Positions 17,702 through 64,000 of a DNA stretch of 64,000 bases are shown piece after piece. The notes beneath the pieces are model-generated. The model worked only from the letters and a program-made list of their open reading frames with translations. It was not told where the DNA came from and made no database searches. The position numbers and the translations under genes were made by a program. This DNA comes from Holophagales bacterium (GTDB taxonomy: Bacteria > Acidobacteriota > Thermoanaerobaculia > UBA5066): NCBI GenBank assembly GCA_016716705.1, contig JADJVF010000013.1, forward strand, positions 60,101-124,100, in the 5' to 3' direction. Every line of letters starts with the position of its first letter. The stretch's first letter is position 1.

Positions 17702-17768
17702 GAGGCGGCTCCGGGTCCCGCCGGAGATTCGGATTGACCTCGCGAGGGGTGCGCCCTAGGCTCCGGAT

Positions 17769-18875: not shown

Positions 18876-19173
18876 GCCCCGAGCACGGCGGCGGCACCCG
18901 GAATCGCCGGAGCTGGCGCGCCTCAGAGAGCGGATCGAGCAGACCGACCGCGACATCGTCGATCTCGTGAAGCATCGCGTGGAGCTGGCGCTCGAGGCCG
19001 GCCGGCTCAAGCGGCTCATCGGAGCCCCGGTGTTCGACCCGGAACGCGAGCGCGAGGTGGAGCACCTCGTGCTCGACTACGCCACCCAGTCCGGCCTCGA
19101 CGAATCCCACATGCGGCTGGTCGTCCGCGGGCTCATCGCCCTCGCGCGCAGCAGCCAGGAGCGAGAGCCATGA
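18872..19173 (+). CDS. chorismate mutase (AroQ class); frame broken by an apparent 1-bp deletion near 18895
   Basis: The ATG at 18872 overlaps the DAHPS stop (ATGA). After a +1 shift in a C-run the frame reads PESPELARLRERIEQTDRDIVDLVKHRVELALEAGRLKRLIGAPVFDPEREREV..., a typical AroQ helix-1/helix-2 pattern. Confidence 0.65.
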
Positions 19174-21578: not shown

Positions 21579-21596
21579 AGATGCCGAAGTCCGTCG

Positions 21597-21740
21597 ACCC
21601 CCCCCCCCGCCGGCATCCGCCCCCTCCCCCCCCTCCCGGGCCAGGACCCCCGCCGCGGGGGGGGGGCGCCGCGGGGCCGGCCCGTCCAAAGGGGCCGCCC
21701 CCCCGGGCGCGGCCGGGGGGGGGGGGGCGCCCCCCCTCGC
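21597..21740. repeat. poly-C / poly-G low-complexity tract (probable sequencing or assembly artefact)
   Basis: Runs of 8-14 C or G (cccccccccgcc...gggggggggggggcgcccccc) sit directly between the methyltransferase stop and the kinase start. Confidence 0.7.
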
Positions 21741-21764
21741 GGCGGGCCCGGCTCGGCGCCGGCC

Positions 21765-28670: not shown

Positions 28671-28677
28671 GATTGCC

Positions 28678-29595
28678 ATGCTGGAAACACGCAAAGGCGA
28701 CCGCCCCGGGACGGGAAACGAAGCCTCCGCGTTCCGCGCCGCGCGACGCCCTGGAGGCTTCCGCCGGGTTCGCCGGGCGGCCGCGCTCGCCGTGGCCCTG
28801 GCGCTCGGGAATCCGGCCGCTGCCGAAGACGCGGAGGCCGGGGACAACGGAGCTCCCCGGCGCAGCGCCTTCACCTTCGTTGGCGCGGAGCTGGCCCGCT
28901 GGGGTTCCGACTCCGTGGCTCTCGTGAAGGCGCCCGCCTCGTGGGATGCGACGGACTGGGAGCGGTTCGGGCTCCTCGGCGCCGGCCTGGGCGGGCTCTT
29001 CCTCGTGGACGAGTCGGTCTACCGGTACGTCGAGGACCACCGGACCGAGGCCGGAGACCGGTTCGCCAGGGCCGTGACCCCGTTCGGGCAGGAGTACGCC
29101 TTCGGTCTCTCGGTCGGACTCCTCGCCGGGGGTCTCGTCTTCTCGGCTCCCGGGACCCGGGACACCGGTCGCGACGCCCTCGAGGCGTCGATCCTCAGCT
29201 TCGTGATCGCGAATCTCGTCCTGAAGCCGGTCATCGGGCGCCAGCGGCCCTACGTCTCGAACGGAGAGACCGTCTTCGACCCGTTCTCCCACGACCCGTC
29301 CTTTCCCTCGGGGCACACGACGGAGGCCTTCGCGGTCGCTTCGGTGATCGCGATGCGCAGCGAAGGCTGGGTCGTTCCGACCCTCGCCTATGCGACGGCG
29401 TCCCTCGTGGCGGTCTCGCGCGTCGAACAGAGCCACCACTTCACGAGCGACGTCTTCGCGGGCGCGGTCCTCGGGATCACCGTCGGCCGGTTCGTCGTGT
29501 CCCGCCACCGGCCGGTTCCCGACGGCCCGCCGCCGGCGACACGCGTCACGCTCGTCGCCATCCCCCACGGCCTTGCCGTCCACGTGTCGTGGTGA
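28678..29595 (+). CDS. PAP2-superfamily phosphatase (phosphatidic acid phosphatase type 2 / haloperoxidase fold), secreted
   Basis: All three PAP2 motifs are present: KPVIGRQRP, FPSGHTT, SRVEQSHHFTSDV. The N-terminus has a signal peptide. Confidence 0.7.
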   Translation: MLETRKGDRPGTGNEASAFRAARRPGGFRRVRRAAALAVALALGNPAAAEDAEAGDNGAPRRSAFTFVGAELARWGSDSVALVKAPASWDATDWERFGLLGAGLGGLFLVDESVYRYVEDHRTEAGDRFARAVTPFGQEYAFGLSVGLLAGGLVFSAPGTRDTGRDALEASILSFVIANLVLKPVIGRQRPYVSNGETVFDPFSHDPSFPSGHTTEAFAVASVIAMRSEGWVVPTLAYATASLVAVSRVEQSHHFTSDVFAGAVLGITVGRFVVSRHRPVPDGPPPATRVTLVAIPHGLAVHVSW

Positions 29596-39721: not shown

Positions 39722-39832
39722 TCGTGCGTCTCCTGTGCCTGAGAAGGACGGGAGGATCGTACTCGACGGGAGCCGGACTAGAATCCGCCCCGCCCGTCCG
39801 GGCGAAACGAGATCCGAAGAGGTGCCTCCGAC

Positions 39833-41001
39833 ATGAAAGTCCACGAGTACCAGGCGAAGGAGATCCTCCGTCGCTACGGTGTCCCGACCCCGACGGGGCA
39901 CGTCACCGACAGCCCGGAGGAAGCCCGTCAGATCGCGAAGGACCTGGGCGGCCGGGCCGTCGTGAAGGCCCAGATCCACGCCGGCGGGCGTGGCAAGGGG
40001 GGCGGCGTCAAGCTCGCGAAGACCCCCGACGAGGCCTTCGAACACGCCAAGGCGATCATCGGCATGCAGCTCGTCACGCACCAGACCGGCCCCGAGGGGC
40101 GCAAGGTCAAGAAGGTGCTCGTCGAGGCGGCGGCCGACATCGCGCAGGAGCTCTACCTCGGGATCACGCTCGACCGGGCCATCGGCAAGCCGGTCCTCAT
40201 GGCGTCGAAGTTCGGCGGCATGGAGATCGAGGAGGTCGCCCACAAGGACCCGACGGCGATCCTGAAGGAGCCGTTCGACGCGATCGCCGGCCTCCAGCCC
40301 TTCCAGGCGCGCAAGGTCGCCTACGCGCTCGGGCTGACGGGGGAGACGCACAAGAAGGCGGTCCCCTTCCTCTCGCCCTCGCGAAGGCCTACGTCGAGAC
40401 GGACTGCTCGCTGGCCGAGATCAACCCGCTGATGATCACCGGCTCGGGCGACGTCGTGGCGCTCGACGCCAAGATGAACTTCGACGACAACGCCCTCTTC
40501 CGGCACCTCGACATCAAGGAGTACCGGGACCTCGACGAGGAGGACCCGCTCGAGGTCGAGGCGTCGAAGTTCAACCTCAACTACATCAAGCTCGACGGCA
40601 ACGTCGGCTGCATGGTGAACGGCGCGGGCCTGGCGATGTCGACGATGGACATCATCCAGTACGCCGGCGGGAGCCCCGCGAACTTCCTCGACGTGGGCGG
40701 CGGGGCCAACGAGGAGCAGGTCCGCAACGCGATGCGGATCATCCTCTCGGACCCGAACGTCAAGGGCGTCCTCATCAACATCTTCGGCGGCATCATGCGC
40801 TGCGACATCATCGCCAGCGGCGTCGTGAAGGCGGTGAAGGAGATCGGCTGCACCATCCCCGTCGTCGTCCGCCTCGAGGGGACGAACGTGGAGGAAGGCA
40901 AGACGATCCTGCGCGACTCCGGCCTCGCCGTCATCCCGGCCGACGGGATGAAGGACGCCGCGGAGAAGATCATCGCCGCGGTCGCGAAGGGGGGGAACTG
41001 A
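39833..41001 (+). CDS. sucC: succinyl-CoA synthetase beta subunit; interrupted by an apparent 1-bp deletion near 40370
   Basis: ATP-grasp N-terminus [20 protein letters not shown]..., then after the frameshift ...[20 protein letters not shown]..., [18 protein letters not shown] and [10 protein letters not shown]. Adding one C restores [13 protein letters not shown]. Confidence 0.9.
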
Positions 41002-41002
41002 G

Positions 41003-41881
<879 letters not shown>

Positions 41882-42067: not shown

Positions 42068-44908
42068 ATGTCCGGGCCGGCGGAGAAGAAACGGAGCCCG
42101 ACGGGGGGCGGCGGCGGCGTGTCTGCGGGCGAGCACAGCGACCCGACGGTGCCGCTGCCGTCCTCTGGGTCGGACACGCCGGACACGGACACCGAAGACA
42201 CCCTTCCCGGGCAGGCCGTTCCAGCCCGCGCCGGCAGACCCGACGTCCTGATTGCCGGCTACCGGATCCTCCGCGTGATCGGCGAGGGGGGGATGGGGAC
42301 GGTCTACGAAGCGGAGCAGGAGCGGCCGCGCCGGATCGTCGCCCTCAAGATGATCAAGCCAGGCCTGGCCACCGCCGCCCTGCTCAGGAGGTTCGAGCAG
42401 GAGGCGCACGCGCTGGGGCGGCTCCGCCACCCGGGGATCGCGCAGATCTACGAGGCCGGGATGGCGGACGCGGGGCACGGCCCCCAGCCGTACTTCGCGA
42501 TGGAGTTCGTGACGGGGCGCCCCCTCGACCAGTACGTGACGGAGAGGAATCCCGGCGTCCGCGAGCGGCTCGACCTCGTCGCCCGCATCTGCGACGCCGT
42601 GCACCACGCCCACCAGAAGGGGATCATCCACCGCGACCTGAAGCCCGGGAACATCCTCGTCGAGGATTCGGGCCAGCCCCGGGTCCTCGACTTCGGCCTG
42701 GCGCGCGTCACCGACTCGGACATCCAGGCCACGATGCAGACCGACGTCGGCCAGATCGTCGGAACGCTCCCGTACATGAGTCCCGAGCAGGTCCTGGGAG
42801 ACCCGCTCGCGCTCGACACGCGCAGCGACGTCTACGCGCTCGGGGTCCTCCTCTACCTCGTCCTGGCGGGCCACCTGCCGTACGACCTCAAGAAGGCGCA
42901 CCTGGCCGAGTGCATTCGTGTCATCCGCGAGGTGGACCCGAGCCCGCTCGGCACGGTGAGCCGGGAGTTCCGCGGCGACGTCGAGACGATTGCCGCCCGG
43001 GCGCTCGAGAAGGAGAAGGAGCGGCGTTACCAGTCGGCCGCGGAGCTCGGCTCGGACCTGCGCCGCCACCTCTCCCACGAGCCGATCGTGGCGCGCCCCG
43101 CGAGCGCGGCGTACCAGCTCGGCAAGTTCGCGCGGCGCAACCGGACCCTCGTGGCCGGGGCGGCCGCCACCGTCCTCGCGCTCGTCGCCGGGGTCGGCGT
43201 CAGCTCGTGGCAGGCGGTCCGGGCTCGGCGGGCCGAGGGGCTCGCCACCTCGCGACTCGCCCAGACGCAGGAGGCGCGCGCCGGGGGGGCCCCGGGGGGG
43301 GGGGGGCGGGGGGGGGGGGGGGGGGGGGGGGGGGAGGGGGGGGGGGGGGGGAGGGGGGGGGGGGGGGGGAGGGGGCGGGAGGGGGGCGGGGGGGGGGGGG
43401 GGGGGCGCGAGGCGGTGAACGCCTTCCTCAAGGAGATGCTCTCGTCGGTCGACCCGTCGGAGATGAAGGGGAAGGACGTGACCGTCCGGCGGGTGCTCGA
43501 CGAGGCGGCTGGAAAGGTCGGAGGCGGCTCGCTCCGGGAGCAGCCCGAGGTCGAGGCCTCCGTCCGGACCACGCTGGGGAAGACCTACCAGGCCCTCGGC
43601 CTCCTCGCCGAGGCGGAGCCCCACCTGAGGCAGGCCCTCGAGATACGCAAGCGCGTCCTCGGCCCCGAGCACCCCGACGTGGCCGCCAGCCTGAACGACC
43701 TCGCCTCGCTCCTCCACGACCGAGGGAAGCGGGCGGAGGCCGAGCCGCTCTACCGGGAGGCGCTCCGGATCCGGAAGAAGGCCCTCGGCCCCGGACACCT
43801 CGACACGTCCGCCACACTGAACGACCTCGGCCTCCTGCTGAAGCAGCAGGGCGACCTGGACGGGGCCGAGGCGATGTACCGCGAGTCGCTCGCGATCAAG
43901 CGGAGGAGCCTCGGCGAGGCCCACGGGGACCTGGCGCAGGCGATCAACAACATGGCGCAGCTCCTCCAGGCCCGGGGGACCTGAAGGGAGCCGAGACGCT
44001 CCACCGCGAGGCGCTCGCCATGCGCCGCACCGTCTTCGGCCCGGAGCACCCCGACGTCCTCGCCAGCCTGAACAACCTCGGCGCGAACCTTTTCGCGCAG
44101 GGGGACGTCGCGGGGGCCGAGGCGCTGGCCCGTGAGGTGCTCGCGGTGAGGCGGAGGACGCTCGACGAGAACCATCCGGACCTCGCCATGGCCCTCAACA
44201 ACCTCGGGGCGTACCTGCGGGTCGAGGGCAAGCTGGCGGAGGCCGAGCCGCTCCAGCGCGAGGCGCTCGCGATCTGGCGGAAGGCGCTCGGCAACGAGCA
44301 CCCCGACGTGGCGAGCGCGGCGAGCAACCTCGCGTTCGTCCTGCACGAGAAGGGGGACCCGGCAGGGGCCGAGGTTCTCCAGCGCGAGGCTCTGGCGATC
44401 CGCGTCAAGGTCTACGGCGAGGGAGCCTCCAGGTCGCCCGGACCCTGGGCCCCCTCGGCCCCATCCTCCTCGACGAGGGCAAGCTCGAGGAGGCCGAGAC
44501 GCTGCTCCGCAGGGCGCTCGAGATCCGCGTCGAGAAGCTCCCGCCCCGCCACGTCGACACGGCCGTCGCGCAGGCCGACCTGGCCCGGGCGCTGAACGCC
44601 CGGGGCAAGTTCGACGAGGCCCGGGCGCTGGCCGCGGAAGCCCTCTCCATCCGCGAGGAGAAGCTGCCCGCGGGCCACTGGACGCGCTTCGAGGCGCAGA
44701 GCCTCCTCGGCGAGGCGCTCGCCGGGCAGGGGAAGCTCGCCGAGGCCGAGGCGCTCCTCCTCCCCGCGTACGAAGGCCTGAGGGCGAGCGCGGCGGTCTC
44801 GCCGTGGAAGAAGAGGGCCGCGCGCGAGCGGATCGTGCGGCTCTACGAGGCGTGGGGCCGCCCGGAGGCGGCAGCGGCCTGGCGGGCGAAGGAGACGGCG
44901 CCTCTCTG
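42068..44908 (+). CDS. Ser/Thr protein kinase with a single TM segment and a C-terminal TPR array; it contains a poly-G tract and two further frameshifts
   Basis: Kinase motifs VALKMI, HRDLKPGNILV, DFGLAR, GTLPYMSPE; then the TM helix TLVAGAAATVLALVAGVGV; then at least 6 TPR units of the Leu-N-Asn-Leu-Ala type (ASLNDLASLL, ATLNDLGLLL, AQAINNMAQLL, ASLNNLGANL, AMALNNLGAYL, ASAASNLAFVL). The 1-bp deletions are near 43980 (a G5 run) and near 44430. Confidence 0.75.
43283..43407. repeat. ~125-bp nearly pure poly-G tract inside the kinase gene (probable sequencing or assembly artefact)
   Basis: Consecutive G runs interrupted by single C/A bases. As translated it would encode an implausible ~40-residue poly-Gly made almost entirely of GGG codons. 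Confidence 0.7.
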
Positions 44909-50741: not shown

Positions 50742-51341
50742 TCACTCGAGGGAGAAGCCGCGATCGAGGCAGGCGAGGGCTTCCTCGCCGAGGCGGGCGA
50801 GGTCCTCCTTGCCGTCCGTGCTGAACCAGTGCCGCATGGTGGCGCGGATGACGCCGATCGCCGCGCCCGCGAAGACGCGGGCCCGAAGCTCCGACGCGTG
50901 GCCGGGGCCGGCGCGTTCCCGGAATGCGCGGGACATCGCGGATTCCCAGTCCCTGTCGATCTCGCGCTCCCGGGCGAGGAGCGCGGGGGAGGTCTGGATC
51001 AGCTTCTGCTGGGCCACGAGCTGGGCCCGGTTCGCCATGTACTCGCGGGCGAAGGCGTTCGCGGTGCGGCGCAGGGTCGCCACGGGCCTCTCGTCCGGCG
51101 GAGCGCTCACGAGAAACTCCACGAAACGGTCCAGCCGTTCCTTCCGGTGCGGGAAGACGAGGGCCTCCTTGTTCAGGAAGTAGCGGAAGAACGTCCGCCG
51201 GCTCACCCCGGCTGCCTCGCAGATCTCGTCGATCGTGGTGGCCTCGAACCCCTTCTGGTGAAAGAAGCGGTTGCCGATCTCCAGCAGTGCGCGCCGGGTG
51301 GCCTCCTTTTTCTTCTCACGCAGGGGCCTTGGCGTTTTCAC
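50742..51341 (-). CDS. TetR/AcrR-family transcriptional regulator, divergent from the pfa-like cluster
   Basis: 199 aa with an N-terminal HTH (ATTIDEICEAAGVSRRTFFRYFLNKEAL) and a helical ligand-binding domain. Confidence 0.8.
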   Translation of the reverse strand: MKTPRPLREKKKEATRRALLEIGNRFFHQKGFEATTIDEICEAAGVSRRTFFRYFLNKEALVFPHRKERLDRFVEFLVSAPPDERPVATLRRTANAFAREYMANRAQLVAQQKLIQTSPALLAREREIDRDWESAMSRAFRERAGPGHASELRARVFAGAAIGVIRATMRHWFSTDGKEDLARLGEEALACLDRGFSLE

Positions 51342-51395
51342 AGGGGGAAGGATATAACTGCGCCCAAGTGCAAAACGCCACTCAGTGCCATTTTA
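51338..51395 (+). promoter_or_regulatory. putative sigma70-like promoter (TTGGCG-18-TATAAC) with an overlapping 23-bp imperfect palindrome (AAAACGCCACTCAGTGCCATTTT, 51373-51395), a candidate TetR operator in the tetR/pfaD divergent region
   Basis: The palindrome is symmetric at 18 of 23 positions and is centred on CACTCAGTG. It sits in a locally AT-rich 70-bp intergenic region between divergent genes. Confidence 0.35.
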
Positions 51396-51411
51396 TCGAG
51401 GCTACCGGGTC

Positions 51412-53034
51412 ATGACCCTTCCCGCCTCTCCGAACCGCTGGCGGCCTGACGGACGCCCGCCGGCCTTCACGCCGACCGAGATCGGGAGAGCACTCGAGGA
51501 GGTCCGCTCCACGGCGCACGTCGTCCGCGAGGACGACGGCCGGATCGGTCTCGGTCTCGGAGGTGAGCTGGTTTCGTCGGGTGGGAGCGGCGGGGCTCCC
51601 GGGACCTTCGCTCACCTGGCTTCGTTGCCACCCACCTACCCGGAGTGGCTCGGTGACCGGACCTTCTCCGAGACGCACGGAACTCGTTTCCCCTACGTCA
51701 CGGGCTCGATGGCGAACGGGATCGCCTCGGTGCGGCTCGTCTCCGAGATGGCGCGGGCCGGCTTTCTCGGATTCTTCGGGGCGGCGGGCCTCTCGCCGGG
51801 CCGCGTCGAGGGGGCGCTGGACGAGCTGCGGCGCGAGCTGGGCGATGCGGGCCTTCCCTGGGGCGCGAACCTGATCCACAGCCCGAACGAGCCGGCGCTC
51901 GAGGAGGCCGTGGCCGATCTCTACCTCCGCCGGGGTGTCGCGCGCGTGGAGGCCTCGGCCTACATGGCGCTGACGCCCTCCGTCGTCCGATACGCGGCGA
52001 CGGGCCTGACGACCGACCCCACCGGGAGGACCCGGCGGAAGAACCACCTCTTCGCGAAGATCTCGCGCGAGGAAGTGGCGATTCGCTTCCTGGAGCCCCC
52101 GCCGGCGGAGATCCTCCGGACGCTGGTCGAGCGCGGCCAGCTGACGGCGGCGGAGGCGCGCCTCGCCGAAGCGCTGCCGCTGGCGGAAGACCTCACCGCC
52201 GAGGCCGACTCCGGCGGCCACACCGACAACCGGCCGCTGACCGCTCTCCTCCCCGCGATCCTGCGCCTCCGCGACCGGGTCGCCGCCGAGCGCGGCTACC
52301 GGCAGGCGGTGCGCGTGGGCGCGGGCGGCGGCCTCGGAACGCCCTCGTCGGTGGCGGCGGCGTTCGCCCTCGGCGCGTCGTACGTCGTGACCGGCTCGGT
52401 GAACCAGGCCTGCGTCGAGAGCGGCCTCCACGAGAGCGGCCGGGCGCTGCTCGCCGAGGCGGGGATCGCCGACGTGATCATGGCGCCCGCGGCCGACATG
52501 TTCGAGCTGGGCGTCACGGTGCAGGTGCTGCGCCGGGGGACGATGTTCGCCGTCCGGGCGAAGAAGCTCTACGAGCTCTACCGCTCCTGGCCGTCCCTCG
52601 AGAGCATCCCGGCCGCCGAGAGGGAGAAGGTCGAGACGCAGCTCCTCCGGGCGACCTTCGCGGAGGCGTGGGAGTCGACGCGCGCCTTCTGGGCCGCCCG
52701 CGACCCGCGCGAGGTGGCGAGGGCCGAAGCCGACCCGAAGCACCTCATGGCGCTCGTCTTCCGCTCGTACCTCGGCCTCTCGAGCCGCTGGGCCATCGCG
52801 GGCGAGCCGGACCGCGGCACCGACTTCCAGATCTGGTGCGGGCCGGCGATGGGCGCGTTCAATTCGTGGGTGCGCGGCAGCTTCCTGGAGAAGCCCGACG
52901 CCCGGACCGCCGTCCAGGTCGCCCGCAACCTGATGGAGGGCGCCGCCGCGGTGACGCGCGCGCAGCAGCTCCGCGCCTCGGGCCTCGCCGTCCCTCCCTC
53001 CGCCTTCGACTTCCGCCCCCGTCCTCTCGCCTGA
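51412..53034 (+). CDS. pfaD: PfaD-family trans-acting enoyl reductase (FMN-dependent, nitronate-monooxygenase-like) of a PUFA-synthase-type cluster
   Basis: 540 aa, matching the TIGR02814-like PfaD pattern (…FPYVTGSMANGIASVRLVSEMARAGFLGFFGAAGL…, EASAYMALTPSVVRYAATGL, GGGLGTPSSVAAAFALGASYVVTGSVNQ). It lies immediately upstream of the KS-AT-ACP megasynthase. Confidence 0.8.
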   Translation: MTLPASPNRWRPDGRPPAFTPTEIGRALEEVRSTAHVVREDDGRIGLGLGGELVSSGGSGGAPGTFAHLASLPPTYPEWLGDRTFSETHGTRFPYVTGSMANGIASVRLVSEMARAGFLGFFGAAGLSPGRVEGALDELRRELGDAGLPWGANLIHSPNEPALEEAVADLYLRRGVARVEASAYMALTPSVVRYAATGLTTDPTGRTRRKNHLFAKISREEVAIRFLEPPPAEILRTLVERGQLTAAEARLAEALPLAEDLTAEADSGGHTDNRPLTALLPAILRLRDRVAAERGYRQAVRVGAGGGLGTPSSVAAAFALGASYVVTGSVNQACVESGLHESGRALLAEAGIADVIMAPAADMFELGVTVQVLRRGTMFAVRAKKLYELYRSWPSLESIPAAEREKVETQLLRATFAEAWESTRAFWAARDPREVARAEADPKHLMALVFRSYLGLSSRWAIAGEPDRGTDFQIWCGPAMGAFNSWVRGSFLEKPDARTAVQVARNLMEGAAAVTRAQQLRASGLAVPPSAFDFRPRPLA

Positions 53035-53080
53035 CCCTTCTTCCAGCTGCTTACCGGATTCGTCCGATGCCGAGGCCAGA

Positions 53081-56000
53081 ATGACCCACGATCCCGCCCG
53101 GAACCTCCCGCCCATCGCCGTCGTCGGCGTGAGTGCCCTCTTCCCCGGCTCCACGGATGCCACCGGTTTCTGGAAGGACATCCTCGCCGGAACGGACCTG
53201 ATCCGCGACGTCCCCCCGAGCCACTGGCTCGTCGAGGACTACTTCGATCCCGACCCCTCCGCGCCGGACAAGACTTACGCAAAGCGGGGCGCGTTCCTCG
53301 ACCCGGTCGACTTCGACGCCCTCGGCTGGGGCGTTCCCCCGTCGACGATCCCGGCGACGGACACGGCGCAGCTCCTCGCCCTCGTCGTCGCGCAGAAGGT
53401 CCTCCAGGACGCCCTTCGCGAGCAGTTCGAGACGGCGGACCGCTCCCGCGTCTCGGTGATCCTCGGCGTCACGAGCGCCCAGGAGCTCCTCTCCACGATG
53501 ACGAGCCGGCTCCAGCGGCCGGTCTGGGTGAAGGCGCTCCGCGAGTCGGGCCTGCCCGAGGCCGAGGTGACGGCGATCTGTGACCGGATCGCGAACCACT
53601 ACGTGCCGTGGCAGGAGTCGACCTTCCCGGGCCTCCTCGGGAACGTCGTCGCGGGGCGGATCGCGAACCGCCTGAACCTGGGCGGCACGAACTGCGTCAC
53701 CGACGCGGCCTGCGCTTCGACTCTCAGCGCGCTCTCGATGGCCGTCGCCGAGCTGCAGCTGGGGCACAGCGACCTCGTCATCTCGGGCGGCGTCGACACG
53801 CTGAACGACATCTTCATGTTCATGTGCTTCTCGAAGACGCCGGCGCTCTCGCCGACCGGCGACTGCCGGCCGTTCAGCGACAAGGCCGACGGCACGATGC
53901 TGGGCGAGGGGCTCGGGATGGTCGCCCTCAAGCGCCTCGCCGACGCCGAGCGCGACGGCGACCGGATCTACGCCGTGGTGCGCGGCGTTGGCTCCTCCTC
54001 GGACGGCCGCTCCAAGAGCGTCTACGCGCCGGTGCCGGCGGGGCAGGCGAAGGCGCTCGACCGCGCCTACGAGCTGGCGGGGTACGGCCCCGGGACCGTC
54101 GAGCTGGTGGAAGCGCACGGGACCGGGACGAAGGCCGGCGACGTCGCCGAGTTCGAAGGGCTCCGGATGGTCTTCGACGGCGCGGGGCGCGACGACCGCC
54201 AGTGGTGCGCGCTCGGCTCGGTGAAGAGCCAGATCGGCCACGCGAAGGCGGCGGCGGGCGCGGCGGGCCTCTTCAAGGCGATCATGGCGCTCCACCACGG
54301 CGTGCTTCCGCCGACGATCAAGGTCGACGCCCCGAACCCGAAGCTCGGCCTCGAAGAGAGCCCCTTCTACCTGAACACGAAGGCGCGGCCCTGGGTGCGC
54401 GATGCTCGTCACCCGCGCCGGGCCTCGGTGAGCGCGTTCGGCTTCGGCGGCTCCAACTTCCACGTGGCCCTCGAGGAGTACCAGGGACCGGCGCCCCGCG
54501 CACAGCGGCTCCGGACCCTCGCGAGGGAGCTGGTCGTCGTCTGCGGGGACGACCCGGCTCAGGTCGCGGCGAAGGCGCGGGAGCTCGCGCGACAGGCGAC
54601 GGGGGCCGCGGGCACCGCTGGAACAGCAGGGGCAGCGGAGGTCCGCCGGCTTGCGCGGCTCGCCCACGAGAGCCAGGAGTCCTATCGCCCAGAAGCGCCC
54701 GCGCGCCTCGCCGTTCTCGCCTCGGACGTGAAGAGCCTGGAGACGAAGCTCGTCGAGGCCGCGAAACGGATCGAAGCCGCGCCCGGCGAAGCCTTCGCGC
54801 TGCCGGACGGCTCCGCCTACGGGGTGGGACCGTGCGACGGCAAGCTCGCCTTCCTCTTCCCGGGGCAGGGGAGCCAGTACGTCGGGATGGGCGCCGGCCT
54901 CGCCATGGAGTTCCGCGCCGCGCTCGGGGTCTGGGACCGCGCGGCGAACCTCGACCTCGAGCCGGGAGGCTCGCTTCACGACACGGTCTTCCCGCGGCCC
55001 GGGTTCGGCGAGGAGAAGCAGAAGAGCGACCTCGCGAGGCTCACGGCGACGCATTGGGCGCAGCCGGCGATCGCCTGCGTCTCGCTGTCGCAGCTGGCGC
55101 TGCTGGAAGCGATCGGGATTCGGGCCGATCTGACCGGGGGGCACAGCCTCGGCGAGGTCGTGGCCCTTCGCGCGGCGGGCGTCCTTTCGAGCGACGCGGA
55201 CCTCCTCACCGTGGCGCGGCGCCGGGGAGAGCTGATGGCCGAGGCGGCCGCGATTCCGGGCGCCATGACGGCCCTGAGCCTGCCGGTCGGAAAGGTTCGC
55301 GACCTCCTCGCCCGCCTCTCACCACGCGTCGTCGTCGCCAACCACAACGGCCCGACGCAGGTCGTCGTCTCCGGGGCCACCGCCGACGTCGCCGACCTCG
55401 AGGCGAAGCTCTCCGCCGAGGGGATCTCGTTCCAGCGGCTCCCCGTCGCCACCGCGTTCCATTCCGGGCTCGTCTCCGGTGCCTGCGAGCCGTTCGCCCG
55501 TTTCCTTTCGGACGTCCCGTTCGAGGCCCCGCGACTGCCCGTCTACTCGAACGCCCTCGCCGCCCCGCACGGCAGCGACCCCGACGTCCTGCGCTCCGCC
55601 CTCGCGAGCCAGATCGCGAGCGAGGTCCGCTTCGTCGAGATGGTCGAGGCGATGTACGCCGCCGGGGCCCGCACGTTCCTCGAGGTCGGCCCCGGCTCGG
55701 TCCTCACGGGACTGCTGGGACGCATCCTCGACGGGCGGCCCCACCTCGCCGTGAATCTCGACCGGAAGGGGAGGGACGGCGTCGAGTCGCTCCAGCTCGC
55801 GCTGGCGCGGCTCGTGGCCGCGGGCGTGGAGATGTCGCCCGCGAAGCTCTTCTCCGATTCGCGCCTGCCGCAACAGGAAGCGGCATCTACGGCCTCGAAG
55901 CTCGCCGTCTCGATCAACGGCAGCAACCACGGAAAGCTCTATCCCCCGCCGGGCGGCGCCGCGTCGCTCCCCGCCCCGAATCCGCCGCGACCGGTGCCGC

Positions 56001-59000
56001 CCGTGCTGCAGGCCGCGCCCGCTCCGGCGATCCCCGCTGCCGCCGTCCCCCGGGAGGACCCGTTGAAGCACGAGACCGCGACGCCCGCCGCCCCGCCTCC
56101 GTCCCCGGCCGCCACTGCCCGTCCCGTGGTCCTGGCCGGTTCGCCCTCGGAGTGGGTCCTGGCCTTCCAGGAGACCCAGCGGCAGACCGCCGAGGCGCAC
56201 GCCGTCTACCAGCGGGCGATGGCCGAGAGCCACTCCTCGTTCCTGCGCGTCGCGGAGTCGGGAATGCTCGGCCTCACCGCGATGGTGACGGGCCAGCCCC
56301 TGTCCGTTCCCGGGCCGCAGCTGGCAAGGGAGATCGCGCCGCGATATGCCCAGGAGCCGCCAGCGCCCGCGTGGGCCCCGGCTCCGGTCCAGGTGCAGTT
56401 TCCGGCTTTCGTGCCTGTCGCTGCCGCGGTCGAGGCGCCGAAGCCGTTTGCGGCGCCGTTCGTGCCGCCCGTCGCGTCATCGATCGTCGAGCAGCCCGTT
56501 CCCGCCGCGCAGTCCGTCGCGACAGTCCCCGCTCCGGTCGCGAAGCGCACCGACAGCGACCTCCAGGCCCTGATGCTGTCCGTCGTGGCCGAGAAGACGG
56601 GCTACCCGGCCGACATGCTGAACCTCGCGATGGACCTCGAGGGCGACCTCGGGATCGACTCGATCAAGAGGGTCGAGATTCTCTCGGCGGTGGCCGATCA
56701 GGCGCCGGAGCTGCGCTCGGTGGACATGGGGCACATGGGGTCGCTGCGCACCCTCGGCGCCATCGTCGAGTACATGAAGAGCCTCGGCCCGCAGGACGCG
56801 GCGGATTTCGCGACGAGGCGGACGGCCGTTTCCGACGTCGACCTGCAGGCGTTGATGCTGGCGGTCGTCGCGGAGAAGACGGGCTATCCGGCCGACATGC
56901 TCAACCTCGGGATGGACCTCGAGGGAGACCTCGGGATCGACTCGATCAAGCGGGTCGAGATCCTGTCGGCGGTGGCCGACCAGGCGCCGGAGCTGCGCTC
57001 GGTCGACATGGGGCACATGGGATCGCTGCGCACCCTCGGCGCGATCGTCGAGTACATGAAGGGCCTCGGGCAGCCGGGGCTGGCCGCTGCCGCGGCGACG
57101 CCCGTTGCGGTCCCGGCCGCGTCCGCGCCCGGTGTCTTCGGCGGGCCTGGTCAATGTGGCGGAAGCGACGAAAGCCGCACCGCGTCTCGGCCGTTTCGTC
57201 CTGGAGAGGATCGCGGCCCCGACCACCGGTCTCGCCCAGCCCGGGCTCCTGGGCGGCGGCGAGGTCTGGGTGACGGGCTCGGACGAGCTGAACGAGCCGC
57301 TGGCCGCCGAGCTGCGCGCCCGCGGCGTGAATGCGAAGGCCACCTCGAGCCTTCCCTCCGGAGCGACGGCCTGCATCTACCTCGGCGGCCTGCGGGACGT
57401 GGCGGACGTCGACGAGGCGATCGCCGTCAACCGCGAGGCGTTCGCCCTCGCGCGCACCCTGGCGGTCCGGCTCGAGAAGGAACGCGGCCTCTTCGTGACG
57501 GTGCAGGACACGGGCGCCGCCTTCGGAATGGCCCCGATGGACGCGCGCCGCGCGTGGCTCGCGGGCCTCCCGGCCCTCGTGAAGACCGCCGGCCAGGAGT
57601 GGCCGCACGCCTCCCTGAAGGCCATCGACCTCGAACGGGGCGGCCGCGGGCCGGAAGCGCTCGCGAAGGCTCTGGCGACCGAGCTGCTCGAAGGGGGCGG
57701 CGAGGCGGAGGTGGCGCTCCCCGCCTCCGGAGGCCGGTTCACGCTGCGCAGCGTGGAGAGGTCCGTCGCGAAGGGAGAGCCGGTGATCGTTCGCGGGGAC
57801 GTCGTCGTCGTCTCGGGCGGCGCCCGGGGCGTCACGGCGGCCTGCATCGAGGAGTGGGCGCGCGAGAGCCGCGCGCGGTTCGTCCTCCTCGGCCGGACGC
57901 CCCTCGCGCCGGAGCCCGCCTGCTGCGCGGGCGTCGCGGACGAGCCGGGCCTGAAGAAGGCGCTCCTCGCCGAGGCCCGGAGCCAGGGTCAGAGCCCCGC
58001 TCCGGCCGAGCTGGGGGCCCGGGTCCACGAGGTGCTCTCCAATCGCGAGATCCGCCGGACCCTCGCGGCGATCCAGGCCGCGGGGGGCGAGGTGCGGTAC
58101 GAGGCGGTGAGCGTCGAAGACGCCGGGGCGCTGGGCGGCGTCCTCGCCCGCGTTCGCTCCGAGTGGGGCCCCGTCGCCGGGCTGGTCCACGCCGCGGGCG
58201 TCCTGGCCGACCGGAGGATCTCCGAGAAGACGGACGAACAGTTCGACCGCGTCTTCGACACGAAGGTGAAGGGGCTTCTCGCGCTCCTCGCCGCGACCGC
58301 GGACGACCCGCTGAAGCTCCTCTGCGTCTTCTCGTCGGTTTCGGCCCGCTGCGGCAACAACGGCCAGGCCGACTACGCCATGGCGAACGAGGTCCTCGCG
58401 AAGGTCGCCTGGGCCGAGTCCCGTCGCCGGCCGGAGATGCTCGTGAAGTCGTTCGGGTGGGGACCCTGGGAGGGCGGGATGGTGACGCCCCAGCTGAAGG
58501 CGCGGTTCGCGTCGCTCGGCGTCCCAATGATCCCGCTCGCCGTCGGGGCCCGCATGTTCGTCGACGAGGTCCGCGGCGCGCAGACCGCGGAAGTGGAGCT
58601 CGTCCTCGGGGGAGAACCGAAGGCGGAAGCGCTCCTCTTCGCGGGCGCCGAGGCCCGGGTCCAGGAGCTCGAGCTGAAGGTCCAGCGGGGGAGCCACGGC
58701 TACCTCGAAGGGCACGCGATCAAGGGAATTCCCGTCATCCCCGTCGTCCTCGCGGCCGAGTGGCTCTCGCGTGCGGCCCGCTCATTCCGGCCCGGCCTGG
58801 TCCTCGCCGCCCTGCACGACATCAAGGTCCTCAAGGGAATAAGGCTCGGAGGGTTCGACAACGGGGGCGACCGGTTCGTGATCGAGGCGCGTCCGATTCC
58901 GAGCAGCCGGGGCGCCCAGCTGCAGCTGGACGTCCGCGGCTCGGGCGGGACCCACCACTACAGCGCCCGGGCCGAGCTGCTCTCGGAGCTCGACGCCCAG

Positions 59001-59462
59001 GGCCCGGCGCTGCCCCAGCTCGAGCTCGGGGAGTGGTCCGGGGAGCCGATCTACGGCGACCTCCTGTTTCACCGCGGCGCCTTCGAGCTGATCGAGCAGG
59101 TCGACGGGATCTCCGACCACGGGGCCGGAGGACGCGTCCGGGGCGTCGAGCGCGCGGGCTGGCCGAACGGCTCGGCGAATCCCTGGCAGCTCGACGTGGC
59201 GGCTCTCGACGGAGGGCTGCAGGTCGCGGTCCTCTACGCGCAGCGGATGCTCGGGCGGGACAACCTGCCGACGACGATCGGAGAGCTGCGGCCGTACAGG
59301 TCGTCTCCCGCGCCGGGCGTCGTCAACGTGGCGGCCTACCGCCGCAAGGTGGGGAGCCACGGGGTCACGACCGACATCCACTTCACCGACGAGAAGGGCG
59401 TGCGGCTGGCGGCTCTCCTCGGAGTCGAGAACCACGCGTTGCCGGCCGGCAGCCAGGCCTGA
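53081..59462 (+). CDS. pfaA: PfaA-type multidomain iterative PKS/FAS with domain order KS - MAT - ACP - ACP - KR - DH(PKS-type); one apparent frameshift near 57140
   Basis: KS: DAACASTLSAL (Cys), EAHGTGT, GHAK. AT: FLFPGQGSQY, GHSLGE, AFHS (malonyl-type). Two near-identical ACPs: LEGDLGIDSIKRVEILS twice. KR: VVVVSGGARGVTAACI...YAMANEVL. PS-DH: LEGHAIKGIPVIPVV. The 6.4-kb reading frame is continuous except for one shift. Confidence 0.85.
56558..57069 (+). repeat. tandem direct repeat of two ~231-bp units (281-bp period) encoding two near-identical ACP domains
   Basis: Unit 1 (56558-56788) and unit 2 (56839-57069) are identical at most nucleotide positions and differ mainly at synonymous sites. 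Confidence 0.8.
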
Positions 59463-59466
59463 CCTC

Positions 59467-62400
59467 GTGGCCTTCGCCCCGATCGCCATCGTCGGGCGGT
59501 CCTGCGTCCTGCCGGGCGCCCTGGACCCGTCCGCGCTCTGGGAGCTCGTCGCCGCGGGGCGCGACCTCGTCGGCCCGGCCCCGCAAGGACGCTGGGGGCT
59601 CGACCCGGACCAGATCCTCCGTCCGTCCGGCCCGGCCCCGGACGGCTCCTGGTCCGACCGGGGCGGCTACGTTTCCGGGTTCGAGACGATCTGGGACCCG
59701 TCGGGGTTCGGGGTTGGCGAGAAGGAGCTCGAAGGGCTCGACCAACTGGTGTACTGGGTCCTCCACACGGCCCGGGAGGCGCTGAGAGACTCGGGGGACG
59801 AGAAGTCCGGGCTCGCGCACGCGACCGCCACGGGCGCGGCCGCCCGGCCACGGACAGGGGCCGTCTTTGGCAACCTCGGTTTCCCTTCCGAGGGGATGGC
59901 CGCTTTCGCGCGGAGCGTCTGGACCGGAAACGGCACCGGCGGAGGGGGTGCCGCCGTCGACCCGCGGAACCGGTTCATGAGCGGCGGGACCGCCGCTCTC
60001 CTGCGCCGCGCGCTGGGGCTGGGAGCGGGCGCCTTCTGCCTCGACGCCGCCTGCGCGAGCTCGCTCTACGCCATCAAGCTCGCCTGCGACCGCCTCCACG
60101 ACGGCGAGGCCGACGTGATGCTCGCGGGCGCCGTGCAGCGCGCCGACGACCTCTTCCTGCACGTCGGGTTCACCGCTCTCGGCGCCCTGAGCCGGAGCGG
60201 CCGCTCGCGCCCCTTTCACAGGGGAGCCGACGGCCTCGTCCCCGCGGAGGGCGCCGCCTTCGTCGTCCTGAAGCGGCTCGGCGACGCCCGGCGGAACGGC
60301 GACACGATCCACGGCGTCATCCGGGGCGTGGGCCTGTCGAACGACGGGCGCGGCAAGGGGCTCCTCGCCCCGTCCGAGGAAGGGCAGGAGCGGGCCATTC
60401 GGGCCGCGTACGCGGAGGCGGGATTCGGTCCGGAACGGGTCTCCCTGATCGAGGCGCACGCCACGGGGACGCCGATCGGAGATGGCGCGGAGATCCGCAG
60501 CACGGGCGCGGTCTTCGCGGGGCTCTCCGGCGTGCCGCTCGGGTCGCTCAAGTCGAACCTGGGGCACCTGATCACGGCCGCCGGCGTGGCCGGCCTCCTG
60601 AAGGTGCTCGGGGCGATGAAGGCAGGAATGCGGCCGCCCACGCTCCACGCGGGGGAACCGCTCGACGCGCTCGCAGGCTCGCCCTTCCGGCTCGTCGAAC
60701 GGCTCGAGCCCTGGACGTGCGAAGGGCCGAGGGTCGCCGCGGTCTCGGCGTTCGGCTTCGGCGGGAACAACGCCCACCTGATCGTCTCGGAGGACGACCC
60801 GGAGCTGGAGCGAACGAGCGGTGCACGGGATGCGGCGACCTCGGCCGCGGCAGCCGCGGCAGCCGGGAGTTCGAAGCCTCCCGTCCTCGCCGTCGTCGGC
60901 CTCGGCTGCGCCGTGGCGAACGCCCCGAATCGTCCGCGATTCGCCGAGGTCCTCTTCTCGGACGCGAGCCTTCTCGACGCGCGAGGCGAAGGCCGCTTCG
61001 GTCCCGTCGAGCTCGACCTCGAGGGGCTTCGCTTTCCACCGAAGGACCTCGGCCAGACGCTGCCACAGCAGCTCGCCACGCTCCGGGCCGCCTGCGAGGC
61101 GCTCGCCGGGAGCAGTGCGCTCCCGCGCGAGCGGACCGGGATCTTCGTCGGAATGGAGCCCGACCCCGAGGTGGCCCGGTGGGGTGCGCGCTGGCGCCTG
61201 GCCCGCACGGCCCGCGAAGCCGGGGCCTCGACGGAGTGGCTGCAGGAAGCGCGCGACGCGGTCGTCCCCGTCCTCGAAGCGGCGTCCGTCGTCGGCACGA
61301 TGCCGAACATCCCGGCGAACCGGCTCAGCTCCCAGCTCGACCTGGGGGGGCGCGCGTTCACGGTCCAGGCGGGAGAGGCGTCGGGAACGGTGGCCCTCTC
61401 TCTCGCGATGCGGGCCCTCTGCAGCGGCGAGCTGGACGCGGCGCTCGTCGGCGCCGTCGACCTCTCCTGCGAGAGCGTCCACAGGAGCGCGATCGAGGCC
61501 CTTGCCGGCGAGGGGACGGCAAGCCCGGCCGGAGACGCCGCGGTGGTCCTCGTCGTCAAGCGACTGGAGGATGCCGAGCGGGACGGCGACCGCGTCTACG
61601 CGCTGATCGAAGAGATCGAAGGGGCCAAGCAACGAGAAGAAGGTCACGAGATAGAGGCGCGAGGGGAGCCGGTAAAGCTTCTCGACCTCGTCGGCGAGAC
61701 ACCGGTGAGCCTCGTGTCGCGCTTCGGGCACTCCTACGCCGCGTCGGACCTCGTCCACGTCGCCGTCGCTGCCCTCAGCCTCCACCACCGCAGGCTTCCC
61801 GGGGGACGGCCCTGGCTGCCGTCCAGCCCCTCGGCCCGCGTGGCGCGCGTCGGGGTGGCGGGTGGCCCGCGGATCAAGCTAACGGAGGCCCAGGGTCACC
61901 CGCGCTGCGCCGAGGACGACGCCCCGCGGCTGCGCTGCTACTCCGGACCCGATCGCGCGGCTGTGATCGACGCGCTTCACAGCGGCCGCGAGGGCCTCGG
62001 CGAGGAAGATCCTGTCCGCCTGGTCCTCGTGGCGACGGAAGGCTCCTTCGAAAGCGTGCGGGTGCGGGCCCTGTCGCATCTCGAGACGGGCGCTCCCGCC
62101 GGTCCCGGAATCCACTTCCGCGAGCGGCCTGTGAACGGCGACGTCGCCTTCGTCTTTGCCGGCGCCGGCGCCGCCTATCGCGGCATGGGACGCGACCTCC
62201 TCGAGCGGCTCCCGGGGCTCGCAGTCTCCCTCGCTCGCCGCAGCCGCAGGCTCCCACGCGCGCTCGCCTGGTCCTTCGAAGACGACGCCCGCGAGCCGGC
62301 GGTCCTCGAGCAGCTCTGGGGGGCCTCGGCTCTCTGCCAGCTCCACGCCGAGCTGACGCGGGGGTTCCTGGGGCTCGAGCCCCACGCCTGGATGGGGTAC

Positions 62401-64000
62401 TCCTCCGGCGAGACGAACGCCCTCCTGGCTTCGGGGACCTGGGCCGACGCCGACGCGCTCGTGGCGGAGAGCGAGAGCTCGGGGCTCTTCACGCGGGACC
62501 TCGGCGGGAGCTTCGCGGCGGTCGAACGCGCGTGGGGCGTTCCGGTCCGCTGGGCGTCCTGGACGGTCCTCGCTCCCGTCGCCGACGTGACGGCCGCCCT
62601 CGCGAGCGAGGAGCGGGTTCACCTCGCGATCGTCCACGGCGACGCGGACTGCGTCATCTCCGGAGACGAAGGCGGATGCGCCCGGGTCGTCGAGGCGCTG
62701 GGTAGAGGCCGATGCCTGCGCCTCGGCTACCCGCTCGCGGTCCACGTTCCCGAGCTCGACGCGGTTCGGGAGGAGTGGCTATCGCTGCACCGCCGGCCGA
62801 CGACGCCGCCCCTCCGGCCGGGTCGCGGCCGCCCGCCCGCTTCTACACGAACGCCACGGCCGTCCGCTACGTGCCGACGTCCGAGAGCTGCGCGCAGGCG
62901 ATCCTCGGCCAGGCGAACCGGACGCTCGACCTGCGCCCGACCGTCCTCGCGGCCTGGGAGGACGGCGTCCGCGTCTTCGTCGAGCACGGGCCGCAGGCGG
63001 CGTGCGGCCGCTGGATCCGCGCGATCCTCGGCGAGCGCGAGGCGCTCGTCGTCAGCCTCGACCGGAAGGGGCAGGGCCTCGAGGCGACCCTCGACGCCGT
63101 CGCGGCGCTCGTCGCCGCGGGCGTGCCGATGCGCGCCGGGGCTCTCGACGAGCTCGACGCCCTGCTGCGGGCGGAACGGCCCTCCCCTCGGAGCGGCCGG
63201 AGCCTCGCCTTCCCGGCGCACTTTCCCGAGGTGAAGCTCCTGCCCGTCCCTTTGCCGATCGTCGCGCCGGACCCGGCGGGCGCGCGCGTCATGGCCCCGG
63301 CTCCGGTCCTGCCGCCGGTCCTCGACGAAGACTGGAACGTCCGGTCGCGCGATCCCGTCGTGCCGATCGCTCCGCCCGCGCCTTCCGCACCGGTCGCGTC
63401 CCCCGTCCTTCAGGGCTTGCTCGACCACGTCGCCCAGCTCTCGAGAATCCAGCAGGACTACGTTCTGGCGCAGCAGGCTCTGCACGAGCGGTTCCTCTCT
63501 GGGCGCGGCGCGGCGATGGAGACGTTCCTCCACGCAGCGCGCCGTGCGGGAACGACGGAAAGTGTTCCGGCGTTCCCGGAGACCCCGATGATTTCGACGG
63601 CTCCGACGCCTGTCGAGAAACCTCATCGCAGCGGAGGTCCCGTCGGTCCCCGATTCGACCGCGGCCAGCTCGAGATCCACGCCGGAGGCCGGATCTCGGA
63701 GCTCTTCGGTCGGGATTTCGCGGCGCAGGACGGCTACGCACGCCAGGTCCGGATGCCGCTCCCTCCGCTCCTCCTCGCCGACCGGGTCGTCGGTCTCGCG
63801 GCCGAGCCGGCGAGCATGGGGAAGGGGACGATCTGGACCGAGACCGACGTGACGTGGGATTCCTGGTACCTGCACCAGGGCCACATGCCGGCGGGCGTGA
63901 TGATCGAGGCGGGCCAGGCCGACCTGATGCTCATCTCGTACCTCGGCGTCGACCTCCTGAACAGGGGAGAGCGGGTCTACCGGCTCCTCGGCTGCGAGCT
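59467..64000 (+). CDS. pfaC: PfaC/pfa3-type protein with domain order KS - CLF (chain-length factor) - AT - FabA-like DH...; truncated by the window end, with one apparent frameshift near 62790
   Basis: KS: DAACASSLYAIKLACD (Cys), EAHATGTP, KSNLGHL. A second KS-like domain lacks the active Cys (TVQAGEASGTVALSLAMRAL). AT: GYSSGE (GxSxG). After the frameshift the protein continues into a FabA-type dehydratase (…GTIWTETDVTWDSWYLHQGHMPAGVMIEAGQADLMLISYLGVD…). A GTG start lies 5 nt after the pfaA stop. Confidence 0.8.

Follow-up and report, generated by a model that had tools for sequence, protein, structure and literature searches.

The closest described relatives of the locus reported here are the type L PUFA synthases, defined by a pfaD gene at the 5' end together with a fused pfaB/C gene (PMC3098273). 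The myxobacterial Pfa1/Pfa2/Pfa3 clusters are of this type (Shulse and Allen 2011), and an AGPAT domain is exclusive to them (PMC4882568). They begin with the enoyl reductase (ER) gene, encode a Pfa2 of KS-AT-ACPn-KR-DH1 and a Pfa3 of KS-CLF-AT2-DH2-DH3-(DH4)-AGPAT, lack pfaB and have their PPTase encoded elsewhere (PMC6731297, PMC8436480, PMC4882568). When expressed, the clusters of Aetherobacter fasciculatus and Minicystis rosea yield DPA/DHA and AA/DTA, respectively (PMC6731297). Within the Acidobacteriota, the same pfaD-pfaA-pfaB/C order with fused pfaB/C has been described for Acanthopleuribacter pedis and Sulfidibacter corallicola (class Holophagae), marine animal-associated isolates of another family than the host studied here, in which pfaE lies far from the pfa cluster and EPA content is 12.2% and 6.2%, respectively; pfa genes were not found in the other acidobacterial genomes examined in that study (PMC8841776). 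The type R clusters of Koribacter and Solibacter (Shulse and Allen 2011), from the same phylum and with a pfaA-related KS, consist of a single KS-MAT-CLF-ACP(3-6)-KR gene and an adjacent PPTase gene, without PfaD or FabA-DH (PMC3098273). The marine gammaproteobacterial pfaABCDE systems (types A/B; Shewanella, Moritella, Photobacterium) share their enzymology and domain families with the present locus, but have pfaD last, a separate pfaB, typically more ACPs, no AGPAT domain and, in the archetypal pfaEABCDE arrangement, a clustered pfaE.

We analyzed a 64-kb stretch of DNA (hereafter the window) from a high-GC member of the Acidobacteriota of the Holophagales/Thermoanaerobaculia lineage. Positions 50742-64000 carry, in order, a divergent TetR gene, a PfaD-family enoyl reductase gene, a pfaA-like gene and a pfaC-like gene, the last of which is cut at the window end. 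This region probably represents roughly the first 70% of an iterative PUFA synthase operon of type L, the type of myxobacterial Pfa1/Pfa2/Pfa3. A preliminary description had implied that such a cluster is novel. However, type L has already been defined, with characterised AA/EPA/DHA producers (PMC3098273, PMC4882568), and a pfaD-A-B/C cluster with EPA production has been published for Acidobacteria (PMC8841776); the cluster opens no new class of system.

Gene order, domain content and class

The pfaD/pfa1 gene (ORF 51385-53034, forward strand) lies immediately upstream of pfaA, the 5' position that the homologous gene has in type L. Its product passes the TIGR02814 pfaD_fam model (612 bits vs a cut-off of 449), also matches NMO and FabD_helical_ins in Pfam, and is 88-91% identical to its orthologues in four related loci (L002, L005, L007 and L013). 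The ORF opens at GTG 51385; judging from the alignment, ATG 51412 (540 aa) is the more likely start.

The pfaA/pfa2 gene, also on the forward strand, is read in two frames. Profile matches in its 5' part (53081-57135, frame 2) place a KS at ~53111-54598, an AT at ~54851-55732, ACP1 at 56558-56779 and ACP2 at 56840-57064 (ketoacyl-synt, Ketoacyl-synt_C, Acyl_transf_1 and two PP-binding domains in Pfam), with the motifs DAACAS, HGTGT, GHSLG and two copies of GIDSI; this N-terminal part alone reaches 1131 bits with TIGR02813, passing its cut-off. The 3' part (57105-59462, frame 0) covers TIGR02813 positions 1852-2355 and carries a KR (~57804-58472; E 3e-32) and a PKS-like DH1 (~58600-59459; PS-DH, E 1e-4), with the motifs GGARGV, YAMAN and HxxxGxxxxP; it is 91% identical to L002 (tblastn). 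Given one frame correction at 57060-57135, the gene encodes the KS-AT-tandem ACP-KR-PKS-like DH succession of the type L PfaA homologue.

The forward-strand pfaC/pfa3 gene begins in frame 1 (59467-62810) with KS2 (~59479-60813), CLF (~60877-62136) and AT2 (from ~62150). This part has Pfam KS and AT matches and a GYSSG serine motif, matches the Moritella PfaC KS-CLF structure 6riw over aa 6-668 (E 1.7e-94) and TIGR02816 pfaB_fam over aa 889-1080, and its CLF has a Glu in place of the KS active-site Cys. The continuation in frame 0 (62811-64000) takes in the remainder of AT2, a DH' pseudo-domain and the opening part of the first FabA-like DH (E 9e-5, first 46 profile positions only), and is 76% identical to L002 residues 1122-1553 (tblastn). 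The window end cuts the protein at ~residue 1553 of ~2900, about 4 kb before the AGPAT position. Across pfaA and pfaC, catalytic motifs are intact in KS1, KS2, AT1, AT2, both ACPs, KR and DH1. A separate pfaB is absent and there is no further AT gene among the ORFs in 50.7-64 kb, the PfaB-like AT being integrated with the KS-CLF as in the fused pfaB/C of type L. Neither was a PPTase domain found among the scanned ORFs with coding signal across the window, which agrees with the separate pfaE locus of type L.

These profile searches bear out the domain content given in the preliminary description (a PfaD ER, a PfaA-type KS-AT-ACP-ACP-KR-DH and a PfaC-type KS-CLF-AT-DH), as well as its reading of the layout as that of the myxobacterial pfa1/pfa2/pfa3 genes, with the ER first, no separate pfaB, and the AT fused into the KS-CLF gene. 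Canonical marine types A/B are ruled out by the leading pfaD and the AT within pfaC, and a type R acidobacterial cluster by its differing architecture. A modular (non-iterative) type I PKS or an ordinary FAS had been named beforehand as the finding that would speak against a PUFA-type system. Generic type I PKS models (NF045894 and others) do match the KS and AT parts as well, but these matches fall far short of their cut-offs (564 and 380 bits for NF045894, which requires 1740), and it is the models for PfaA and PfaD that are passed; moreover, the domains form one set only, in which the ACPs stand in tandem, KS is paired with CLF, the PfaD-family ER acts in trans and the DH domains are of FabA type. 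The domain searches thus reject this reading, which we regard as extremely improbable.

Orthologous loci and frame breaks

We found 20 related loci, the closest of which, at 78-91% aa identity, are in Holophagales/Thermoanaerobaculia MAGs. These relatives share the TetR-pfaD-pfaA-pfaC order, have exactly two ACPs, and encode PfaA and Pfa3 in uninterrupted ORFs of ~2100-2190 and 2889-2917 aa, respectively. The orthologous Pfa3 proteins read KS-CLF-AT-FabA x2, PS-DH (a PKS-like DH4) and a PF01553 acyltransferase (AGPAT), which is the layout of myxobacterial Pfa3, including the DH4 of Minicystis (PMC6731297). L001, L002, L003, L005 and L007 each carry the two FabA domains (84-90% identical to one another), and the C-terminal AGPAT is present in every complete orthologue. 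In the cluster studied here DH3, DH4 and AGPAT would lie outside the window, and we predict them from these orthologues. A second FabA-DH and an AGPAT domain had been anticipated downstream, and each of the five complete orthologous loci has both. A PPTase gene had been proposed there too, yet none was found downstream of pfa3 in L002, L005 or L007; it is likewise unclustered in myxobacteria (PMC8436480). The cluster differs from myxobacterial Pfa1-3 in its host phylum (Acidobacteriota), in having two ACPs, and in its distance from the nearest myxobacterial-MAG homologues (Polyangiales, Nannocystales), to which it shows only 46-50% aa identity.

In contrast to the intact 2100-aa megasynthase first described, no such pfaA ORF exists, and the frameshifts in both pfaA and pfaC had been overlooked. 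At the first (net +1), within 57060-57135 in the Ala/Pro-rich linker between ACP2 and KR, the reading of pfaA passes from frame 2 into frame 0. With the intact L002 PfaA as tblastn query, residues 62-1409 align in frame 2 up to 57082 and residues 1422-2197 in frame 0 from 57135; a frame 0 stop at 57057 bounds the shift, and the exact base cannot be placed because linker length varies among relatives. At the second, a single nucleotide is deleted from a C-rich run (GCC-CCT) within the AT2 region of pfaC, at 62800-62820 (~62810), where DNA alignment reveals one base missing relative to six relatives and tblastn a change from frame 1 to 0, between stops at 62703 (frame 0) and 63232 (frame 1). The cluster is therefore complete-looking, as it had been called, only after two frame corrections.

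Taken at face value, both megasynthase genes being out of frame would point to a decaying pseudogene array from which no synthase is made, and the sequence itself is the only direct evidence at hand. However, at least four more frameshifts split other genes of the same 64 kb: one each in the core genes sdhA (~15940) and sucC (40367-40430), and two in a kinase-TPR gene (~43965 and ~44425). Three of the sites (both kinase-TPR shifts and the pfaC shift) coincide with short runs of G or C, and the sdhA shift falls in a G/C-rich stretch. Furthermore, there are no in-frame stops or missense decay, identity to intact orthologues is 84-91% on either side of each shift, all catalytic motifs are intact, and the coding-frame GC3 signal runs on unbroken past each shift. 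We therefore consider a pseudogene array unlikely. Given the other frameshifts in the window and the intact ORFs in five orthologous loci, assembly indel errors are the likeliest cause of the breaks in pfaA and pfaC, and the organism thus probably has both genes intact. With so many apparent indel errors in the window, statements about individual genes, 'a 2100-aa protein' for example, should be frame-corrected ahead of any cloning or antiSMASH-type annotation.

A conserved divergent TetR gene

The cluster had been called TetR-flanked: one TetR-family gene does lie divergently upstream, and the downstream flank falls outside the window. The gene (50742-51341, reverse strand) encodes a 199-aa regulator (TetR_N, E 7e-15; TetR_C_14, E 1e-10) that scores under the cut-off of every NCBIfam equivalog, the best being MftR-like, and is weakly similar to the fatty-acid regulators FadR and FasR. 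Orthologues occupy the same position in L002, L005, L007 and L013 (87-96% aa identity) and in L008 and L012 (47-49%). The block between the TetR gene and pfaD (51342-51411) contains an imperfect palindrome, GCCACTCAGTGCC (51377-51389), with the core CACTCAGTG (51379-51387). Alignment shows this block to be near-invariant in five acidobacterial loci, while neighbouring positions vary, making it a candidate operator/promoter through which the divergent TetR probably represses the operon. The papers that we consulted on myxobacterial clusters mention no regulator gene.

Proposed pathway and product

Our combined findings suggest that the likely function of the cluster is the iterative synthesis of long-chain PUFA, loaded by AGPAT directly onto lysophosphatidic acid. 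In the proposed scheme, AT1 would load malonyl units on the two tandem ACPs of Pfa2, themselves activated by a PPTase encoded elsewhere, and KS1 and the KS2-CLF pair would extend the chain. Each beta-keto group would be reduced by KR; the PKS-like DH1 and the FabA-like DH/isomerase domains of Pfa3 would dehydrate and set cis double bonds, and the trans-acting Pfa1 ER would reduce selected enoyl intermediates. The C-terminal AGPAT of Pfa3, a domain seen in the orthologues, would then transfer the finished acyl chain to sn-2 of 1-acyl-glycerol-3-phosphate.

The determinants of product specificity in PUFA synthases have not been elucidated, and the product is not yet readable from sequence (PMC6731297). 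The two ACPs had been taken to indicate a non-canonical product. However, the number of ACPs in PUFA synthases is given as 'two to over 10' and their effect on yield as additive (PMC4882568), and since ACP number reportedly affects yield, two ACPs are no argument for an unusual product. Clearly less probable is that the cluster makes some secondary lipid outside the classical C20-C22 PUFAs, which AGPAT would still incorporate; candidates are a Sorangium-like C18 di-/tri-enoic acid, an n-6 very-long-chain acid, a hydroxy fatty acid or a polyene precursor. Most non-myxobacterial type L hosts are without demonstrated PUFA (PMC3098273), and the type L system of Sorangium makes linoleic acid only (PMC4882568, PMC8436480), but AT2, whose absence has been suggested to explain why Sorangium makes no EPA/DHA (PMC8436480), is present here. 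Identity to myxobacterial homologues is only ~50%, and the acidobacterial orthologues carry DH4, which, between Aetherobacter and Minicystis, occurs only in the n-6 AA/DTA synthase of Minicystis and alters product spectra (PMC6731297). Against this, the domain set is that of LC-PUFA producers, and EPA is produced by cultured Acidobacteria whose pfa genes share this layout (PMC8841776). Thus, a long-chain PUFA remains our preferred reading.

Four conserved features distinguish the Holophagales/Thermoanaerobaculia clade: it has just two ACPs, a DH4 like that of Minicystis, AGPAT, and its own TetR with a candidate operator. That it makes a PUFA or polyenoic lipid undescribed for the phylum, such as an n-6 very-long-chain acid, is a rather doubtful proposition. 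With this locus, the known range of AGPAT-bearing type L PUFA synthases comes to include an acidobacterial lineage that is uncultured and high in GC, and a conserved TetR and candidate operator pair is added as a possible regulator. If expressed, the cluster would supply one more case for judging how product and yield are related to DH4 and ACP number. If the clade does make an undescribed polyenoic lipid, widespread uncultured Acidobacteria of soil and sediment would have a route to unsaturated membrane lipids that is independent of oxygen.

Domain content of the pfa genes

The cluster, like the window as a whole, lies in DNA of ~71% G+C. At its 5' end a TetR-family protein of 199 aa is encoded on the reverse strand (50742-51341, -; TetR_N E 7e-15, TetR_C_14 E 1e-10), divergently from a PfaD-family enoyl reductase ORF (51385-53034, +) that scores 612 bits against TIGR02814, with a cut-off of 449. 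A PfaA-type protein follows on the forward strand from ATG 53081, with its N-terminal part containing a KS, a KS C-terminal extension, an AT and two PP-binding domains; this part alone scores 1131 bits with the 'omega_3_PfaA' model TIGR02813. The KR and DH of pfaA are found in an ORF at 57105-59462 (+), in a frame that differs from that of the 53081 ORF. From GTG 59467 (+), a PfaC-type protein carries a second KS, then a KS-like half, then an AT matching the PfaB family model TIGR02816 at aa 889-1080. In the KS-like half the active-site Cys is replaced by Glu, so this half is a chain-length factor (CLF). The structure of the Moritella PfaC KS-CLF didomain (6riw) aligns without a break to residues 6-668 (E 1.7e-94). 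The final 1.2 kb of the window covers the remainder of this AT, a linker/pseudo-DH region and the beginning of a FabA-like domain, of which the first 46 positions fall inside the window. Catalytic motifs are intact (DAACAS, HGTGT, GHSLG, GIDSI twice, GGARGV, YAMAN and HxxxGxxxxP, with GYSSG in AT2). The domain order proposed in the preliminary description was therefore correct, based on the Pfam/TIGRFAM matches, the 6riw alignment and these motifs, and it cannot be a chance pattern.

Related loci and the TetR-pfaD intergenic block

We searched species-representative genomes for related loci, using the KS-CLF-AT part as the query, and found 20. The closest (78-91% aa identity) were all in metagenome-assembled genomes (MAGs) labelled Holophagales, Thermoanaerobaculia or Acidobacteria, followed by unclassified proteobacterial MAGs (53-57%), Nannocystales and Polyangiales MAGs (46-50%) and, lowest, Mycobacterium (41-42%). 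In three close acidobacterial relatives (L002, L005 and L007), pfaA is a single ORF of ~2100-2190 aa and pfaC a single ORF of 2889-2917 aa. The relatives' divergent TetR (87-96% aa) and PfaD (88-91%) hold the same positions as in the window, and an M24 aminopeptidase lies upstream of TetR in both the window and L002.

The block between TetR and pfaD (51342-51411) is nearly invariant relative to its equivalents in these three loci and in a fourth close relative, L013. It carries AAGGATATAACTGC and an imperfect palindrome, GCCACTCAGTGCC (51377-51389), making it a candidate promoter/operator. The same alignment suggests that the true start of pfaD is ATG 51412. The TetR protein is likely a local repressor of the pfa genes. 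It resembles FadR and FasR, which respond to fatty acids, only weakly and below threshold, so any ligand is a matter of conjecture.

Genes elsewhere in the window include a core-metabolism neighbourhood (13300-20740 and 39782-41878) made up of sdhCAB, sucCD, malate/lactate dehydrogenase, DAHP synthase, a SAM methyltransferase and a PEMT-family phospholipid methyltransferase (20000-20740), as well as a PAP2 lipid phosphatase (28426-29592). None is obviously tied to the pfa cluster.

Frameshifts across the window

The preliminary description overlooked a defect in both large genes: tblastn and DNA alignment revealed that pfaA and pfaC are each out of frame. The 2234-codon ORF from 53081 runs into arginine-rich nonsense past the second ACP. 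With the intact L002 orthologue as the tblastn query, residues 62-1409 were found in frame 2, ending at 57082, and residues 1422-2197 in frame 0, beginning at 57135. The shift is confined to 57060-57135, a bound set by a frame 0 stop at 57057, within an Ala/Pro-rich linker past ACP2; because linker length differs among relatives, the position cannot be narrowed to a single base. The reading frame of pfaC changes from 1 to 0 at ~62810, where a DNA alignment with six relatives shows that a C-rich run lacks one base (the window reads GCC-CCT, the relatives GCCTCCT or GCCCCTT). Programmed frameshifting was ruled out for these genes, as the orthologues have plain continuous ORFs.

Frame changes across the window were flagged by a GC3 frame plot and then subjected to Pfam scans. 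The sdhA/frdA gene is split at ~15940, a G/C-rich stretch: its FAD_binding_2 domain is read in frame 1 for profile positions 3-302 and in frame 2 for 298-414. The sucC gene switches frame at 40367-40430, its ATP-grasp domain being read in frame 2 and its CoA-ligase domain in frame 1. A Ser/Thr-kinase-TPR gene is read in three frames, switching at ~43965, where a G5 run is present and G6 is needed, and at ~44425. Short G or C runs are found at three sites, namely both kinase-TPR shifts and the pfaC shift. Two further candidates were dismissed: a histidine kinase/response regulator pair (6.3-8.6 kb) and two M16 peptidases (29.6-33.5 kb) are in each case separate, complete genes. There are thus at least six frameshifts in the 64 kb of the window, two of them in central-metabolism genes, which suggests that the assembly has roughly one indel error every 10 kb. 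The frameshifts in the pfa genes could reflect either decay of the cluster or such errors. Since shifts also occur in other genes, 84-91% identity to intact orthologues is kept on either side of each pfa shift, and the catalytic motifs are preserved, assembly indel errors are the parsimonious reading and very probably the correct one.

Other irregularities were observed in the window. At 15821-17636 a single stop-free frame covers both the C-terminal part of SdhA (Succ_DH_flav_C) and the iron-sulfur subunit SdhB (Fer2_3, Fer4), which is either a natural fusion or the result of a lost stop or further indel. A kdpB-like P-type ATPase ORF (566-2131, -), near kdpA (2112-3836) and a KdpD-like DUF4118 histidine kinase/response regulator pair (6356-8571), has only 522 aa and ends within the Hydrolase domain (profile position 169 of 191); past it (57-560) the coding signal goes on in another frame, and the ORF may thus end at one more frameshift. 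Between the kinase domain and TPR repeats of the Ser/Thr-kinase-TPR ORF, ~112 nt (43294-43405) are almost pure G, in runs of 13, 27, 16, 17 and 18 with single A or C between them. This stretch, either a ~37-residue poly-glycine linker or an assembly artefact, is a strong candidate for a G-quadruplex or slippage site. Long homopolymers (C11, C8, G10 and G13) also cluster at 21598-21727, where another Ser/Thr kinase ORF (21579-24455) has its 5' end and coding-frame signal is absent.

Pfa3, ACP number and known PUFA synthases

In every complete acidobacterial orthologue, Pfa3 (PfaC) continues with two successive DH'/FabA pairs, a ~380-aa segment and a PF01553 acyltransferase; each of these segments is 78-90% identical among the acidobacterial loci. 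We take the ~380-aa segment to be a putative PKS-like dehydratase, DH4, because eight of nine orthologous segments match Pfam PS-DH (E 4e-7 to 2e-3), it has an LFHGPAFQ motif resembling LFHRGAFE in the window's DH1, and the L002 protein is named 'polyketide synthase dehydratase domain-containing protein' at NCBI. A PDB search with the segment returned no match, and BLASTP against the window's DH1 no significant match. The genes downstream of pfa3 vary among relatives (an SBP/DAHP synthase pair, two Band-7 genes, or a 2-hydroxyacid dehydrogenase), with no PPTase among them or among the ORFs scanned elsewhere in the window.

Exactly two ACPs were found in all five acidobacterial orthologous loci that cover the ACP region. 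This agreement among independent assemblies rules out a collapse of ACP repeats, and the count of two is therefore real. Loci from myxobacterial MAGs have two or three ACPs and those from Mycobacterium three or four. The low count had been thought to point to a non-canonical product, an argument not borne out, since PUFA synthases are reported to carry 'two to over 10' ACPs, whose effect on yield is additive (PMC4882568).

The defining features of type L in Shulse and Allen are a fused pfaB/C and, at the 5' end, a homologue of pfaD, with Sorangium, Plesiocystis, Streptomyces and others listed as hosts (PMC3098273). Yoshida et al. assigned the Aetherobacter pfa1-3 cluster to this type, to which, by their account, the AGPAT domain is restricted and in which the PPTase gene lies elsewhere (PMC4882568). 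AT2 is present in Pfa3 of Aetherobacter and Minicystis and absent from Sorangium, whose sole product is linoleic acid (PMC8436480, PMC4882568). The Minicystis AA/DTA synthase differs from the Aetherobacter DPA/DHA synthase in having a PKS-like DH4 between DH3 and AGPAT, and inserting this domain alters the product spectrum (PMC6731297). Judged by this comparison and by the Pfa3 of its orthologues, the window cluster probably carries every domain of the LC-PUFA-producing type L synthases, and in architecture it looks most like the Minicystis type. Assigning it to the myxobacterial-type pfa clusters was right, and the idea of a non-canonical system finds no support. Pfa3 content differs among related type L loci: L012 (a Pseudomonadota MAG) and L014 (a Polyangiales MAG) have a Sorangium-like Pfa3 without AT2 that retains DH4 and AGPAT, and L011 (a Polyangiales MAG), L015 and L020 (both Mycobacterium) give no match for DH4 and AGPAT.

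By homology to the model for the myxobacterial enzymes (PMC6731297, PMC4882568), we propose that synthesis would be iterative, with AT1 placing malonate on the two ACPs and KS1 and KS2-CLF extending the chain. Each round would be processed by KR, DH1, the FabA-type DH2 and DH3, probably DH4, and the trans-acting Pfa1 enoyl reductase, together yielding methylene-interrupted cis double bonds without oxygen. The AGPAT domain would then off-load the acyl chain onto 1-acyl-glycerol-3-phosphate.

A pfaD-A-B/C cluster, with pfaE at a distant locus, is present in two Acidobacteria, Acanthopleuribacter pedis (12.2% EPA) and Sulfidibacter corallicola (6.2% EPA) (PMC8841776). We found no other literature on PUFA clusters in Thermoanaerobaculia or Acidobacteriota, and no report specific to pfa clusters of Holophagales/Thermoanaerobaculia MAGs. 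A reading of low probability is that the product of this clade would be a PUFA or polyenoic lipid without precedent in the phylum. The Pfa family is widespread, with thousands of homologues in the protein database from Acidobacteriota, Myxococcota, Actinomycetota and Pseudomonadota, and the window cluster, real but subject to the frameshift caveat, is a further member of its type L.
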